Origin: Lama guanicoe
Taxonomy: Eukaryota
Direction of reading: 5' to 3'
Length of the DNA: 56,302 nt
NCBI GenBank assembly: GCA_013239625.1
Contig: MU053347.1
Coordinates: 240,669-296,970, forward strand
The stretch's first letter is position 1; every line of letters begins with the position of its first letter. This document shows positions 23,397-56,302 of this stretch, in pieces. A program made the translations under genes and the position numbers. The notes beneath the pieces are model-generated. The model was not told the DNA's origin. It was given only the letters and a program-made list of their open reading frames with translations, and did no database searches.

Positions 23397-23484
23397 GTAA
23401 ATAACATTCCTTCTTATTCACGCCCGCCTTCCCCTGTTGAGAGGCCTTACAGACAATCCCAAATCTGCGTGTCCATGTGTCTAG

Positions 23485-23978
23485 GTGTCTCCAGATGCCC
23501 AGTGTTCCCGGCTGACCTGGTCTTCACCTTGGACACATCAAATGACGTCTCCCAGCTGGAGTTTGAGAGGAGGAGAGACATTGTTGTCTCTCTGCTGATG
23601 AAGATAGACATAAGTGGGGGTAACTGCCCCACGGGGCCCCGGGTGGCTGTGGTCTCGTACAACAGCAGAACAGACCACCTGGTTCGCTTCTCCGACTACC
23701 GGGGCAGGCCCGCGCTCCTGTGGGTGCTCGGGGAGGCGGCCCTGGCAGCGCCCTCCGGCAGCAGGAGCCTCGGGGGTGCCATGAGGTTTGTGGCAAGACA
23801 CCTGTTCAAGCGCGTGCACTCGGGCCTTCTGCTCAGGAAGGTGGCCCTGTTCTTCCAGGTGGGCTGGGCCCAGGATGTCGACACCATCAGCACCGCCACG
23901 CTGGAGCTCAGCGCCCTGGGCATCACCTCTGCCATCATCACCTTCATGGAGGGGCACAACCTCCCGGAGGCTCTGCTA
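23485..23978 (+). CDS. COL6A4: C1 von Willebrand factor A domain exon, 494 bp
   Basis: Lies within ORF 23469-23999 (CPVFPADLVFTLDTSNDV...CPTGPRVAVVSY...LGGAMRFVARHLFKRVHSGLLLRKVALFF); ctAG acceptor, GTacgt donor. Confidence 0.93.
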
Positions 23979-24244
23979 GTACGTGGGGGCCGTGGCTAGG
24001 CGGGTGGGTCCAGGGTGAGTGCCATGTGCCTCGTGAACACCGTCTTATTGAATTCTTCCCTGGACTCTACAAGGTAGGTGTTACCATGCGTCTCCCTTCC
24101 AGAGAGAAGAAATCCAAGGCTTAGAGAGGTTAAGTCTATCATCAAAGGTCAGATATCTTATTAGGGGCGGACTGATTTGACCTGCCTTCAGAGCCTGTGC
24201 TGAAACACTGTGCTAACCGGTATCATGAGGTCGGTAGAATGGAC

Positions 24245-48889: not shown

Positions 48890-50592
48890 TTCATCCATTC
48901 GTTCAGCAAGTATCTATTGAGGCTATCCTGAAGCACTGCTCAAGGTGTTGCAGGTAGAGCATGAAACAAACATAAACTTTCATGACACCACACAGCTTAC
49001 ACTCTGATGAGGGGGGACAGAAAAAAACAATTATTAATATATACCACACTGTATATTATATGGTGATCAGTGTTATTAAAACAAAAAAAATAGGAATGTA
49101 AGAGAAGGAATACTGTGGTAGTGGTGGATATAAATAGGAAAAGTGATCAATGAGCAAATATTAAAAGAGACGAGCGTGCTAAGCAAAATAATGGCCCTCC
49201 TCCCAAAGATATCCACATCCTAATTCCTGGAAACTTAAATGTGTTTAACTTACATAGCAAAAGGGAATTTGCAGATATTAATAAGGTTACCAACCTTGAG
49301 ATGAAGAGATTATCCAAGTGCCTGTCGCCGGATAGGTGCAACTGGTGTTCCAGGTTCTTGTCCCATCCCAGAAAGAATTCAGAGACAAGACTTAGAGGTT
49401 AAAAAGGTAAAGTGAGGATTTATTAAGGGGTGGATAGTACACTCTCAGGGGAGAGCGGGCAGGCTCAGGTGAGCAGCTGTCTTGAGTTTCTTTGGCAAGT
49501 TTGTTACATAGGGTGTAAAAATGAATGGGCAGAATATTCACTGGGGAGGGAGGGTTGGGGGTCGTATTCCCTGATTATCATCCCAACTCCACCTTCCCAA
49601 AGGGAGGAGGGATTTTTGTCCTTATTTAGTCTGGATTGGAAGTGTCATGGCATCAGTGCATGATGGGTACTTTTGATCTGTAAGGCTAATTTTGTTGAAA
49701 TGAGGGCATAATGGGCAAAATGGTTACATTCAGACACTGGAAATTCCTGCCTTTTCTGACCTTTCTTTGTTGGTCTCCAAGCCAAAAGTTTTGGTCCCTT
49801 ATCAACCCAAAGATTCCAGCTTTTCTTTCTCTGCCCAAGGATCCCTGCTGCTCACATGATGTGTGGTTTCCTGCATTTGGCCTCTGCCCCTCCTTTCTGC
49901 CTAATTCCTGCATTTTGGTCTGTGTCCCCCTTTCTCTGCTCATATCTAGCTATCTGCCTGCTCTAACAGACCCAGTCTAACCACATTGGGTCCTTAAAAT
50001 CAAAGCACCTTTCCCAGCTATGGTCATAGGGTTATGTGACTATGGAAGATGGATCAGAGAGAAGCAATCATTTTTGCTTTGAGGTTGGAGAAAAAGCACC
50101 AAAAGCCAATGAATGTGGGTGACCTCTATAAGCTGGAAAAAGAAAGGAAATGGATTTGCCTCTACAGCCTCCAGAAGAGAATACAGACATCCCAACATCT
50201 TAATTTTAGCCCAGTGAGACCTGTGTCAGATTTGTGACCTACAAAACTGTAAGATAATAAATTTGTGTTGCTTTAAATCACTAATTTTGTGATAATATTT
50301 TACAGCTGCAGTAGAAAATTAATACAGTGAGGGAGTGTCTTGCTTATTAAACAAGGAGCAGTGGGGAGGTCTGTGAGTCTGGAGAAGTGCAGTATTAGAA
50401 GATGAGGTCAGAGTGAAAGGATGGAGGTAGAAGATTATGAATGGCCTTGGCGGCTTGTGTAATAGAATTGGTTTTTACTCTGAGGTGGGAAGCCATTGTG
50501 AATTTTTAATCAGAGGAATGTGATGTCTTATGTCTTAAAGGGATAGCTACTTTGTAGGAGGGCAAGGATAAAAACCTGGAGCCCACTGAGTA
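48890..50592 (+). mobile_element. L2 relic interrupted by an MLT1 LTR (~49175-50326) and ending at the ERV
   Basis: L2 terminus ttcatccattcgttcagcaagtatctattgag; MLT1 text ataatggccc...ccaaagatatccacatcctaat...gtagaaaattaataca. Confidence 0.7.
49323..49968 (-). mobile_element. Solo ERV LTR, 646 bp, inserted in the MLT1
   Basis: TG...CA termini (tgtcgccgg...ctctaaca); minus-strand AATAAA at 49419-49424; MLT1 sequence resumes after it. Confidence 0.8.
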
Positions 50593-51040
50593 TGTAAAGG
50601 AAAAGCCCAGCTGGGCTAACTCATAAATCTAAAGTTTAGTGTTAGTCTATTGGGCTAACGAGCTCAGTCACAAATCTAAGTGTAATAAGTGTCGGTTTAC
50701 TGATATAAGTTCTGCCGGGCTAACTTGTAAATCTAAAGTTTAGTGTCAGTTTACTGGGCTAACAAGCTAACTCGTAAATCCAAGCTCAACAAGTGTCAGT
50801 AATGTGATCTGTTCCAAATTGATAAGCTCCAGTGTACTGATTCCTTCCTTTCTGTTATTTGAACCTTACTGGCTAATAGCCCATACTTGTAATTAACCCT
50901 ATAAAACCTCATGTACACGTCTTGGAGGTGCTCAGAGCTTCGGAGCAGAAGTCCCTCTGAGCCCGCCGGCATAATAAATCTGAGTACTCCAACCCTCCGT
51001 GTGGTGCTTGTTTCTTGGCTGGCCTGTCATTTCCGTAACA
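50593..51040 (+). promoter_or_regulatory. 5' LTR, 448 bp
   Basis: TG...CA; TATAAAA at 50900-50906; AATAAA at 50973-50978; homologous to 55741-56251. Confidence 0.95.
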
Positions 51041-51044
51041 TTTC

Positions 51045-51062
51045 TGGAGGCCCCAGTGAGAT
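51045..51062 (+). promoter_or_regulatory. Primer binding site, tRNA-Thr type
   Basis: TGGAGGCCCCAGTGAGAT, one CpG-type mismatch from the recalled Thr PBS TGGAGGCCCCAGCGAGAT; 4 nt after the LTR. Confidence 0.82.
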
Positions 51063-52320
51063 ACAACCATGCCGGCCCCTTGAGCCGCTGGACTGGTGGC
51101 TCCGGCCGACCGGGGGATGGGACTCTGGCAGCGAATGAGGTGGCGCCGCCTGACGGTATTCCGGGTTCTCTTTCGTGACAGCAACTCGGCCCCCGGGTGG
51201 CTGGGCTACAACCAGAGCCAGACTCCGTGGAGGACGGACAGACTCACCAGGTGGCCGTCCGGACAAGGTAGGATCCCCAGGAAGGAATCAGGTCCTGTCC
51301 CACTGGACAGAAGAGGAGGCTGATCCCATCCTACAGGCTTTCCGTCTGATGGTATTTCAGATGGGGAAATCAGGAATCAGGTCAGGAATCAGGTCCTGTC
51401 CCAGTGGACAGAAGAGGAGGCTGATCCCCTCCTACAGGAAACAGGATATTGGAATTGGTGGAAGGACTGTTGTTAACCTCTGTGTGTGTGTGTATATGAG
51501 TAAATGAGTGGCCTATAAAGCATGCGATCAGGCTCGAGTTTGTAGCTCCACAGCATTGTGCTACGGAATTCGAGTGAGTCCCAACCTGTGGTTCCGTGGT
51601 GACCTCATACGGCTCAGGGTGGTATCGGTTCCTCAGGGTCCCGATCGGAGTCAGCGGCTTATACTGACCCGCCAAAGCTAAGAGGCACCTACATCCCCAT
51701 GAGGGGAGTGGACAGGCGGACGCAATGAAAACCCTCCCTTGTCTTGTCTGCGACACCGGCACAGGGTGGCTACACTGGGAGGGAAAAGAACATAGACAGC
51801 CAATGTGTCAACGCCCCTGTACCCTTGGAGGCTAGGATACTATTTCTCTGAAAAAGTCTCCTACCTGACTCTGGCACAGAACACCCAAGACTTATTGTTC
51901 CCCTACTGAAGTGACCAAAGTAGTGCCCCTTTTCCCTAGCCTCAGACCCCCAGGACTCAAGTTTAGAAGACGAATTCCTTCAGGACCGGGCTTGCCTGGC
52001 CCTGGAGGTCCCTTTCCTAGTCCATTTGTTTTGCCATCTGCTGTCAGTCCCATGCCCCTGATACATTAGTTCAGAATATAGAGAGGATTTAATGAAACAA
52101 GTCCCTAAAACTGCTTGAGGCCTTGAGCTCCAGAGACATCAGCTGTGACTGGAACCCAGAGTCCCTGACCAAGTTAGCCTTAAAACAACTCATAGACCAA
52201 GCAAGAGAGCAGTCTCTCTGGAAACTCCGATGTCTTAAAGAGTAAAAAAAAAAAGATATAAAGTCTACCTTCCCAAACATCTAAAGCAACAGGACTATTA
52301 TCCTTAAACATCTAAAAACA

Positions 52321-52670
52321 ATGGGAGGCTCTAAGTCAAAACCCACCACTCTAGACTGCATGATTAAGAATTTCAAAAAGGGGTTTTCAGGAGACTATGG
52401 AATTCAAATGACCCCTGGCAGGCTCCGCACTTTGTGTGAGCTTGAATGGCCGGCCTTTGGAGTTGGGTGGCCCTCAGGAGAAACTCTGGACCTAGCAAAG
52501 GTGCAAACAGTCTATCAAATAATCACTGAAACCCCAGGCCACCCAAATCAATTCCCTTACATTGACTCCTGGCTAAATATTGCCCAGACTCTACCCCCAT
52601 GGATTTGGTTTTGCTCAAATGGACCTGGACAATACAAGATATTAGCAGCTCAGCCGGTCCAGGCCAAAAA
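52321..52670 (+). pseudogene. gag: gag matrix (MA) domain only
   Basis: MGGSKSK myristoylation motif; KNFKKGFSGDYG...LRTLCELEWPAFGVGWP...GHPNQFPYIDSW. Confidence 0.92.
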
Positions 52671-55110
52671 GACAGTCAAATACTTGGGATTTATTATCTT
52701 AGAGGGACACCGAGCCCTAGGACCAGAATGAAAACAAGTTATTTGTGCCATACCCAGACCGGAAACAAAAAGAAAACTGCGAGAGTTCCTGGGTGCAGCT
52801 GGGCTTTGCTGGATATGGATCCCCGGCTTTTCAAGAATAGCCAAGTCCCTCTATGAAACAACTGCTGGATCAGAAAAAGAAACCCTCAAATGGGAAACTA
52901 AACAAAAAAATGCCTTTAGACAACTAAAGAAACTACTAATCCAAGCCCCAGCACTAGGCTTACCAGATGTAATACGACAGTTTAATCTGTTTGTACATAA
53001 AAGAGACCAAACTACTCTTGGAGTCCTAACTCAGAACGTGGGGCCGTGACAGCACCCTGTGGCCTATTTATCTAAAAGACTGGACCCTGTAGCATCAGGA
53101 TGGCCACCCTGTTTACGGGCCCTCGCTGCCACAGCCTTCCTGGTCAATGAGGCAAACAAGCTCACACTGGGACAGACTTTGAATGTAAAAGTGCCCCATT
53201 CTGTGGTGGCCCTGATAAACGGCCCAGGTTACAAATGGGTAACTAACACAAGGATGACCCACTACCAGGGGCTTCTATGTAAAAATCCAAGAGTCCGTCT
53301 AGAGACTGTGCGAACCTTAAACCCAGCCCCATATTTGCCTGAGGGGGAAGGACAGCCTGACCACAACTGTGAAGAAATCATTAAAGAGGTGTACGCAAGC
53401 AGGCCTGATCTAACCGACAAGCCCCTGCAAAACCCAGACCTGGAACTTTTCACAGATGGCAGCAGTTACATACAAGATGGACAACGGCTAGCAGGTTACG
53501 CTGTAACAACAACCCGAGAGGTAATAAAGGCAGAGTCCCTTCCCCCAGGATGGTCTGCTCAGCGAGCAGAGATCTGGGCACTGGTCCAGGCACTAAGAAA
53601 AGGGAAAGGAAAATGAGTCAATATATATACTGATTCCAAATATGCATTTGCAACCTTGCATGTACATGGAGCCATCTATAAGAAGAGAGGACTTTTAACT
53701 GCTGGGGAAAAAGAAATCAAAAACAAAAAAGAAATTTTACAGTTACTGGAGGCAGTATGGGATCCAAAGGAAGTGGCCGTTATTCACTGTAAGGGACACC
53801 AAAGAGGAAATGACCCTGTGAGCCAGGGAAAAGGCTAGCTGATCAAAAGGCAAGAGGAGCAGCCACCTGGGAACACTCAGTAATTAAAGTTATGGCAGCG
53901 CCAGAGCTACCCACTGCCCCAGAATATAGTCACGATGAAAACAAGTGGGCACAGGCTGAACGAGGAGAGAAAGGAAAGGACGGATGGTGGGTCATGACTG
54001 ATGGAAGGGTTTTCATCCCAGAATGACTAGCTTATCGTTTAGTCCAACAACAACACAAAGCCACACATATGGGAAAAATGGCTTTGGAGGCCCTCTTAAA
54101 GCGATATTTCCTAATTTCTCGTCTCCCTACTCTGTGTGCATCAGTTTCCCAACGCTGCTTGCTCTGTGCACAAAACAATCCAAAACAAGGGCTAACTGGG
54201 CCAATGGGAATACAAGGATGTGAGTTGGCTCCCTTTGAAGATTTAGAAATGGACTTTACTAAACTTGGGCCCAGTAAGGGATATAAGTACTTGCTGGTTT
54301 TCGTCTGCACCTTCACAGGGTGGGTAAAGGCCTAACCCACCAGGACAGAAAAAGCAAAAAAAAAAAAAAAAAAAGGGAAATGACAAAGGCTCTTCTCAGG
54401 GATGTTATCCCTCGATTTGGAATGCCTACCTCCATTGGGTCTGACAATGGACCCACCTTTGTGTCAGAAATTGTACAGCAAGTGGCAAAGTCACTGAGCA
54501 TCCTCTGGAACCTGCACACAGCATACCGGCCTCAAAGCTCAGGGAAGTTAGAACGAATAAACTGGACTCTAAAACAAATTATAGCTAAAATCAGCCAAGA
54601 AACCCAGCTCCCCTGGGTGGGCATTCTACCCCAGGCACTGTTACAAATTAGATGCACCCCCAAGATTTAATATTGGGTACTCTCCCTTTGAAATCCTCTA
54701 TGGGCGACCACGAACTTTAGTCAGGATGAGAAATCCCACCCCAGAAATAGGAAATTTAGGGTTCCACCAACAACTGTTGGGACTAGAAAAAGTACTACGA
54801 GAAGTTTGAGGTTGGGTGATAGAGAAAACCCCCATTTCATTAGGGGTTCAAGTGCATCCCCATAAACCAGGTGACCAGGTATGAGTGAAGGATTAAAAAA
54901 AAACCTCTCAAACCAACATGGAAGGGACCATATTTAGTGATATTAACTACTCCTACAGCTGTTAAAGTTGCAGGAATCGTCCCTTGGATCCACCACTCCA
55001 GGGTCAAGAGAGCAACTGCACCTCAGGCAGACGGTCCCTAGAAAATTGAGAGTGTCCCAGGAGACCCGCTCAAGATCAAGATCAAGAGGGACCAGAAAAG
55101 GATCGACGAG
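52671..55110 (+). pseudogene. pol: pol remnant: RT thumb/connection, RNase H and integrase, with stops and frameshifts
   Basis: [59 protein letters not shown] zinc finger, MDFT/SDNG/LER (DDE) and WKGPY. Confidence 0.95.
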
Positions 55111-55276
55111 CCCTGCTCTAGCCACAACCGGAAGCTGGCTAGTCAACACACGGCCGAAGCCTGAGGATCAACGTGCCCAGCTCTAGCCACAACCGGAAGC
55201 TGGCTAGTCAACGCACGGCCGAAACTTGAGAAAAGCTCAACGCAGCTGTTAAATGTAAATTCAGCCACGATCTCCA

Positions 55277-55730
55277 ATGAATAGCAAAAACCCTGGGAAC
55301 TCTGCAAAATCAGACTGGCTCTCTGGCCGAGGTGGCTTAAAAAACAGGAGGGGCCTGGACTTACTCACGGCCAAAGAGGGGGGACTATGCCTCTTCCTAA
55401 ATAAAGAGTGTTGGTTTCATGCCAATCAATCAGAAATTGTCAGAGAAATGGTTCAAGAGTTACAACACCGAGTGAAAAAGAGAAAACATATTTTAGGTAA
55501 GAGCCCATGGACAGGACTCTGGGGCTGGACCTCCTGGGTAACACCATTCATAGGTCCCTTACTACTGATTTTTGCAGTTATGCTGTTTGGGCCCTGTGTC
55601 CTAAACTTCCTGACCCGCTTTGTCAGTGAGCGGATAGAGGCTATAAAACTTCAGATGTTAGCCTCAAATTATAAACACCTGCAACAGGTAAATAATGATG
55701 CTTACTCAAACAAGGGTTGTGAAAGCATCA
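55277..55730 (+). pseudogene. env: env remnant: TM immunosuppressive domain, membrane anchor and tail; SU deleted
   Basis: NRRGLDLLTAKEGGLCLFLNKECW (CX6CC mutated), WVTPFIGPLLLIFAVMLFGPCVLNFLTRFVSERIEAIKLQM. Confidence 0.93.
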
Positions 55731-55740
55731 GAGGGGGGAA
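55730..55740 (+). promoter_or_regulatory. Polypurine tract
   Basis: AGAGGGGGGAA directly before the 3' LTR TG. Confidence 0.93.
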
Positions 55741-56251
55741 TGTGAAGGAAAAGCCCAGCTGGGCTAACAAGCTAACTCACGAATCTAAGTGTAACAAGTG
55801 TCGGATTACTGATCTGAGTTCTGCTGGGCTAACTCATAACTCTGAAGTTTAGTGTCAGTATATTGGGCTAACGAGCTAAGTCACAAATCTAAGTGTGATA
55901 AGTGTTGGTTTACTGATATAAGTTCTGCTGGGCTAACTTGTAAACCTAAGTTTAGTGTCAGTTTACTGGGCTAACAAGCTAAATCTTAAATCCAAGCTCA
56001 ACAAGTATCAGTAACGTGATCTGTTCCAAATTGATAAGCTTCAGTGTACTGATTCCTTGCTTTTATTGTTTGAGCATTATTGGCTAATAGCGCATACATC
56101 TAATTAACCCTATAAAACTTCATGTGCACGTCTTGGAGGTGCTCAGAGCTTCGGAACAGAAGCCCCTACGAGTCCGTCGGCATAATACATCTGAGTATTC
56201 CAACAATCCGTGTGGTGCTTGTTTCTTGGCTGTCCTGTCATTTCCGAAACA
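55741..56251 (+). promoter_or_regulatory. 3' LTR, 511 bp
   Basis: tgtgaaggaaaagcccagctggg...gtcatttccgaaaCA; one extra U3 module; polyA signal mutated to AATACA. Confidence 0.95.
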
Positions 56252-56302
56252 ATGTCACACACACCTTTGGCGTTATTCTAAACCAAATTACAGTCGAGGG
56301 TC

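Follow-up and report, generated by a model that had tools for sequence, protein, structure and literature searches.

The window analysed here is a stretch of 56,302 nucleotides from the guanaco, Lama guanicoe (assembly GCA_013239625.1, contig MU053347.1, positions 240,669 to 296,970 of the forward strand). It contains a 5.7-kb endogenous retrovirus (ERV) at window positions 50593-56251, in which the matrix (MA) part of gag runs directly into pol. The same junction occurs at 20 loci of the assembly, each the result of an independent retroviral integration, at different times, of a genome that already carried the deletion. We consider it probable (about 0.8) that this provirus is a twice-deleted, non-autonomous derivative of a murine leukemia virus (MLV)-like ERV (class I, gamma-type) that was mobilized in trans, and that its fused open reading frame (ORF) was a passenger.

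A matrix-pol junction present at twenty loci

The fused frame starts with an ATG at 52321 on the plus strand, on which all parts of the provirus are read. Translation to 53838 with X at each TGA gives 505 residues; X falls at residues 137, 243 and 432, corresponding to nucleotides 52729, 53047 and 53614. An initial annotation, made from the window sequence, had described an in-frame fusion of Gag matrix to the reverse transcriptase (RT) interrupted by these three TGA stops, and both points were borne out. Pfam analysis of the fused frame identified Gag_MA at residues 30-95 (E 1.4e-12), RT_RNaseH_2 at 191-288 and RNase_H at 373-496 (E 2.3e-24), together with a match to RT_RNaseH. Residues 20-96 aligned with MLV matrix (Protein Data Bank (PDB) chains 1mn8 and 1uhu), and residues 105-503 aligned with RT/RNase H structures of MLV and xenotropic MLV-related virus (E 2e-133). 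The matrix fragment occupies 52321-52664 (codons 1-115). It begins with MGGSKSK, in which Gly-2 and Ser-6 presumably fit the consensus for myristoylation, in agreement with the annotated motif. The end of the RT palm together with the thumb and connection occupies 52676-53436, including the first two TGA codons (MLV RT chains 4mh8 and 4hkq), and the RNase H domain follows at 53437-53838, including the third (PDB RNase H chains). HMMER also aligned the tail of matrix with RT residues from before the junction, a match discarded as due to chance; 15 copies that keep p12 show this stretch to be gag.

We searched the assembly of the window itself (2.05 Gb) with positions 52560-52800, scoring the 40 best candidates in this and every other search. 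Among the best 40 of 119 candidates, 18 matched over the full length, 2 were cut on the right, 19 matched from 52665 onward only, and one (L050) matched up to 52678 only. Past the junction site, gag continues into a proline-rich p12-like region in L050 and in short pieces of 14 other copies. Upstream of the junction site, copies that keep the RT core show RT sequence including the YVDD motif. The 11-mer CAAAAAGACAG is present at both parental sites; it is exact in 13 of the 15 gag sites of p12-keeping copies and in 10 of the 11 RT sites of RT-core copies. The window retains a single copy of this 11-mer, at 52665-52675. The annotated breakpoint, at about 52670 and leading into the RT thumb, was thus correct as to the fusion, while the site itself is the 11-nt repeat and pol is picked up about 40 residues past YVDD, as seen through L050, in the last part of the palm ahead of the thumb. 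Neither capsid (CA), nucleocapsid (NC), protease (PR) nor the RT core is found in the element; L050 and the RT-core copies show the part that is missing.

The spacing between the p12 probe and the RT-core probe is 1770-1797 nt in 19 of 20 longer loci by coordinate arithmetic, so the deleted segment measures about 2.38-2.39 kb. The repeat-to-repeat distance, computed in four longer loci, is 2382-2393 nt; one value (2382) is divisible by three. Gammaretroviruses typically carry gag and pol in one reading frame and use read-through rather than frameshifting. The repeat is read as AAA-AAG-ACA in both gag and pol, and the fusion is in frame because the repeat sits in the same codon phase in the two genes. 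A junction that retains one of two repeats bears the signature of a direct-repeat (copy-choice) deletion through template switching in reverse transcription. In the experiments described in PMC3187697, retroviral reverse transcriptase deletes between direct repeats such that the intervening sequence is precisely lost and one repeat stays; direct-repeat deletion of this type is also described in PMC3678115. The repeats in the experimental systems described there are at least 100 nt long, in contrast to the 11 nt found here. With a repeat of just 11 nt, the event should have been rare and then propagated.

A 39-nt junction pattern, allowing up to three mismatches, was found at exactly 20 places in the assembly, and the reversed control pattern was found at none. 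The recurrence exceeds chance. All 19 other copies (L031-L049) were fetched together with their flanks. Runs of N (46-1135 per locus) are present in 13 of these 19, and the reading of long terminal repeats (LTRs) and target duplications is limited in 8 of the 20 junction copies. The overall architecture is common to all 20, each of which is bounded by two full LTRs; between copies the difference is 5-12%. Gammaretroviral integration typically generates a 4-bp target-site duplication. Both ends could be read in 12 copies. Perfect, locus-specific 4-bp duplications flank 8 of them, and three of the four bases agree in one more; no matching duplication was found in the window copy, L038 or, as read, L048. 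All-against-all comparison of 30 flanks yielded one weak pair only (72% over 229 nt). Divergence between the two LTRs of a copy ranges from 1.2 to 9.4% across 11 copies. Recurrence of the junction in other copies had been put forward as the test of an amplified family, and the 20 loci, the empty control, the unrelated flanks and the individual target duplications answer it positively.

The copies could alternatively have come from genomic duplication, assembly redundancy or retro-copying of one locus mediated by long interspersed nuclear elements (LINEs). The lack of a matching duplication at the window copy is compatible with this, and no evidence supporting it was found. It is contradicted by the unrelated flanks, by eight perfect 4-bp duplications that are all different, and by the presence of two full LTRs per copy with 5-12% between copies; poly-A tails or truncated LTRs were not seen in the junction copies. 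We rejected LINE-mediated and segmental copying on the basis of flanks, duplications and two-LTR structure, and leave this explanation hardly any probability.

Since CA, NC, PR and the polymerase core are absent from the element, the proteins for its spread would have had to come in trans. Longer relatives are present in the same assembly. The MA-to-p12 region is kept in all 40 scored loci (the best 40 of 120 candidates), and the RT core is kept at 87% identity or more in 23 loci. Both p12 and RT-core probes are found in 20 loci, in 19 of which they lie 1.77-1.80 kb apart and in one 1.65 kb. These longer copies, at least 20 in number and known from short pieces only, could be candidate helpers. 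Two RT-core copies on different contigs, L022 and L024, are identical across 1,625 aligned pol columns, which could reflect a recent duplication, assembly redundancy or a very recent insertion. Taken with the 20 loci, their own duplications and their unrelated flanks, the candidate helpers support the earlier proposal that the progenitor was a non-autonomous, helper-mobilized element.

We propose the following course of events. In reverse transcription, the polymerase would have jumped between the two 11-nt repeats, one at the end of gag matrix and the other in RT about 40 residues past YVDD, removing about 2.4 kb with p12, CA, NC, PR and the polymerase core. With gag and pol presumably sharing a frame and the repeat in the same codon phase, the product would automatically be in frame. 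The shortened genome would have kept the LTRs, the primer-binding site (PBS), the leader, the 5' part of gag and the polypurine tract (PPT). Its packaging, reverse transcription and integration would then have been carried out by proteins of intact relatives in the same genome, giving at least 20 separate insertions across a long period. Along the way it would have recombined with family members, undergone APOBEC-type editing and lost further parts of env, and the fused ORF would have been carried as a passenger that was not needed for spread.

Decay of the fused frame

Stops or frameshifts between 52321 and 53830 are present in all 20 junction copies. Apart from a stop at codon 29, no lesion is common to more than 6 of the 20. 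The initial annotation had noted a 1-nt frameshift at about 53830. We confirmed a frameshift near 53831, which is private to the window copy, as all 19 other junction copies are one base different in length there. In total, four frame-breaking length differences are private to the window copy, near 53831, 54356, 54657 and 54900. Because no other lesion is widely shared and the frameshifts of the window are private, the fused frame of the founder was probably continuous. A short A-rich run at 52766-52768 is an indel hot spot, with length changes of various sizes in 7 of the 20 junction copies.

The stop at matrix codon 29 (TAA) is of a different kind. Of the junction copies that can be assessed, 10 of 19 carry it, against none of 20 longer copies (Fisher p 1.5e-4), and it always lies on a four-site MA haplotype (52397, 52400, 52405 and 52406) that is found in 13 of 19 junction copies and in 1 of 20 longer ones (Fisher p 3.9e-5). 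We read the codon-29 stop as inherited on the strength of this linkage. Among copies with this TAA the target duplications are individual and LTR divergence spans 2.0-5.6%, indicating that stop-bearing genomes went on integrating for long. LTR divergence is lowest (1.2%) in two copies, which already hold 4 and 7 disrupting lesions. Most of the shared stops are at CpG-type codons and do not track the tree, and they are best read as recurrent decay. Shared stops were also tried as subfamily markers and were set aside; the codon-29 stop and a stop at 52504 are both unclustered on the tree (6 and 5 changes, respectively), and only the former lies on a linked haplotype.

Part of the decay appears to carry the mark of editing. 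Among shared non-CpG polymorphisms in the window copy and loci L031-L049 (window positions 51041-55740; minor allele in at least four junction copies), A/G sites number 113 and C/T sites 13. An A follows the G allele at 71 of the 113 A/G sites, compared with 135 of 538 invariant Gs, and independent copies show G/A changes at identical positions. A plus-strand G-to-A bias in the GA context is the expected outcome of APOBEC3-type editing on minus-strand DNA. The strong G/A excess is read as an APOBEC3-like footprint, which fits amplification through reverse transcription and accounts for some of the stops.

The ratio of nonsynonymous to synonymous substitution (dN/dS) was compared between the coding frame and the two off-frame controls, with L020 left out of the junction set owing to a long run of N. 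In the junction copies the whole fused frame gives 0.69, compared with 0.47 and 0.88 off frame, and frame 0 was the lowest in 1.2% of 1000 codon bootstraps, in a test that is low in power as most differences are private to single copies. For the pol part of the junction copies the ratio is 0.64 in frame versus 0.46 and 0.91 (frame 0 lowest in 5.0% of 1000 bootstraps). The pol part of the longer, RT-core copies gives 0.43 in frame versus 0.57 and 1.09, with frame 0 lowest in 86% of 1000 bootstraps. A dN/dS below 1 had been suggested as the sign of selection; the fused-frame value of 0.69 falls between the off-frame values of 0.47 and 0.88 and does not serve as such. The initial annotation had also envisaged a working, membrane-targeted MA-RNase H-integrase protein. 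With an inherited codon-29 stop in 10 of 19 copies, all 20 copies broken and no constraint beyond the off-frame controls, a functional protein of this kind is unlikely.

No sequencing run contained more than 0.32 of the sampled words, and words of the family are present in five organisms. In contigs from three RNA libraries and one DNA run, no record bridged 52665-52675 with 31 letters on each side, a result that has no bearing on whether the junction form is transcribed. The undeleted forms are visible in these contigs as loose ends at 52665 and 52675.

Alternative origins, mosaicism and known relatives

Besides the low power of the dN/dS comparison, several observations weigh against a trans-mobilized clonal lineage with a passenger ORF. 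Codon 30, directly after the inherited stop, is ATG, and a shortened, non-myristoylated product could in principle start there. Two other gag-pol deletion variants are each present as a single copy, compared with 20 copies of the junction variant, suggesting that something favoured the latter. One of them, L050, joins CA to the PR/RT border. The other, L026, fuses codon 3-4 of gag to RT across a 9-nt motif common to both, and as read the frame is not kept. The tree of the junction copies approaches a star, with 5 starred among 18 inner branches and a median end branch of 0.03, and the pol tree mixes junction and RT-core copies with 6 label changes, at least 3 of them forced by starred branches. 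The junction is also found on four env states. The mixed pol tree and the star-like junction tree leave a simple clonal lineage unproven and call for recombination or for some recurrence of the deletion, which may have occurred.

The L026 junction (contig C4123, around 134292-134331) constitutes a second short-homology deletion in the family. L021 first appeared to be a further deletion variant and was dropped, its apparent breakpoint being a run of N.

The excess of the junction variant is what would be expected if an in-frame protein of MA, truncated RT, RNase H and integrase had aided its own mobilization in cis and the variant had been amplified for this reason. The founder frame seems to have been continuous, the codon-29 stop being the sole lesion found in over 6 of the 20 copies, and the window frameshifts being private; the RNase H catalytic region aligns well with MLV; and of the two single-copy variants one is out of frame as read. 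A precedent is the cis-acting gag-pol fusion of the mouse intracellular A-particle (IAP) element 1-delta-1, as reported in PMC6466679. Against it, the codon-29 stop was inherited in 10 of 19 copies and integration was nevertheless long-lasting, the youngest copies (1.2% LTR divergence) are already multiply broken, and constraint on the fused frame does not exceed that of the off-frame controls. A fusion protein without CA and NC would, moreover, have no evident route into particles. We regard cis-aided amplification as improbable. Just as little probability goes to a version in which the open frame of the founder gave an early cis advantage, explaining the 20 copies against 1 and 1, and lineages with the codon-29 stop restarted at Met-30 or rode on others.

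The mixing of junction and RT-core copies in the pol tree would also follow if the same deletion had arisen many times from full-length genomes, with the 11-nt repeat as a hot spot and no deleted lineage at all. The presence of the junction on four env states, the grouping of L020 with longer copies and the existence of two MA haplotypes among junction copies all agree with such repeated origin. According to the measurements given in PMC3187697, however, deletion becomes less frequent as repeats get shorter, and where long homology is lacking, recombination is rarer than homologous recombination by a factor of at least 1000. At such a low rate, twenty fresh events in a family of some tens of copies are implausible. 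Moreover, an MA haplotype rare in longer copies is enriched in the junction copies (p 3.9e-5), and env is deleted in all but one of the 18 junction copies that can be assessed. Many independent deletions are, in our judgment, a shade less probable than amplification in cis.

The env states themselves point to stepwise loss. At the env breakpoint, L020 and two longer copies carry 1210-1219 nt, against 9 nt in 14 junction copies including that of the window, and the two longer copies examined (2/2) both keep the env segment of about 1.2 kb that is missing from the window. The breakpoint of the window is shared by these 14 junction copies; two others retain about 300 nt more, one retains about 150 nt, L020 alone has the full 1.2-kb segment, and two are not assessable. 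Most of env is accordingly gone in 17 of 18 assessable junction copies. Spacing like that of the 300-nt form is also found at other loci that lack the junction. By these comparisons the family is a mosaic. In our reading, a single rare deletion was amplified, while co-packaged relatives recombined and env was lost stepwise. A single rare event is preferred for two reasons: deletion at an 11-nt repeat should be infrequent, and the junction copies show an excess of a haplotype and of env deletions seldom or never met in the longer copies.

In its logic, the closest analogue appears to be mouse IAP 1-delta-1. As described in PMC6466679, this element has a 1.9-kb gag-pol deletion with an in-frame fusion, needs full-length elements, and makes a fusion protein reported to be cis-acting. 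The two share an internal deletion of part of gag and pol, an in-frame fusion ORF, non-autonomy and successful amplification. They differ in that IAPs are class II (beta-like) intracellular elements whereas the guanaco element is class I and MLV-like, and in that the guanaco deletion spares only the matrix of gag. The IAP fusion acts in cis by that account, whereas half of the guanaco copies have an inherited early stop and constraint is not detectable. The defining feature of 1-delta-1, an ORF held open in mobile copies, is not found in the guanaco family.

ETn/MusD and VL30 are described in PMC6466679 as non-autonomous LTR elements mobilized by coding relatives or by MLV, VL30 being co-packaged by a gammaretrovirus. 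Like these, the guanaco element would have spread by proteins supplied in trans; it keeps the LTRs, the PBS-like site and the PPT and may keep a packaging region. The interiors of ETn and VL30 are largely non-retroviral or non-coding, in contrast to the recognizable MA, RNase H, integrase and transmembrane (TM) segments and the datable, repeat-mediated breakpoint of the guanaco element. FcERV_gamma6 of the cat and MLERV1_3 of the bat comprise many proviruses with one deletion breakpoint, read in PMC4643047 as an amplified deleted progenitor with relaxed selection on the remaining domains. They are, like the present family, gamma-type ERV subfamilies with a common breakpoint. As described there, they lose env and keep gag-pol, so that retrotransposition in cis is possible, whereas gag-pro-pol of the guanaco element is gutted and a helper would be obligatory.

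Families of such a kind are already known in mouse, cat, bat and human, and the guanaco family opens no new question. It is a clear and datable case of an MLV-like retrovirus that would have been reduced to a parasite of its own relatives. It would have begun with a rare jump at an 11-nt repeat and gone on to spread in trans and to lose more of env, and recombination and APOBEC-type editing are visible in the copies. It also calls for caution, as an in-frame gag-pol fusion recurring at many loci can be a passenger; recurrence tests amplification and not protein function.

Anatomy of the provirus and its surroundings

The provirus is bounded by two LTRs in direct repeat. The 5' LTR (50593-51040) is 448 nt long, starts with TG and ends with CA; the 3' LTR (55741-56251) is 511 nt long. 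A PBS-like 18-mer lies 4 nt past the 5' LTR at 51045-51062, starts with TGG and is kept in other copies. The leader (51041-52320, 1.28 kb) contains a 55-nt repeat at 51283-51337 and 51384-51438 and is common to the longer copy L050. The PPT at 55730-55740, read in the sequence and kept in other copies, adjoins the 3' LTR. The initial annotation had listed LTRs, PBS, leader and PPT as all retained, and each was located as given here.

The two LTRs of the window copy are unequal in length (448 and 511 nt), and their divergence of 9.4% is the highest among the 11 copies. The flanking tetranucleotides at 50589-50592 and 56252-56255 do not match. The window copy may be a recombinant of two proviruses.

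Downstream of the RNase H domain, integrase remnants extend over several frames at 53814-55041, with Pfam matches to zf-H2C2, rve and MLVIN_C each on a separate frame. They are followed by two 65-nt tandem units at 55099-55228; more than 10 such units are present in another copy, L013/L042 (L042 5308-6271). The env deletion breakpoint lies at 55249-55257, where about 1.2 kb of env is gone. The C-terminal part of the env TM segment follows at 55259-55852 (Pfam TLV_coat, E 3.2e-32, profile positions 458-559 of 560). The class I, gamma-type markers of the element are an MLV-type matrix, RT/RNase H (MLV RT chains, E 2e-133), the integrase C-terminal domain and a TLV-type TM.

Rfam and ARAGORN searches over the whole window gave zero matches. 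Elsewhere in the window, an open stretch of 200 codons at 23397-23999 on the plus strand has by eye the look of a von Willebrand-A-type domain and is probably an exon of a host gene. The contig also carries, some 37 kb upstream of the window (G000:C682:202947-203507), a further member of the family in which MA to p12 is preserved at 85% identity.

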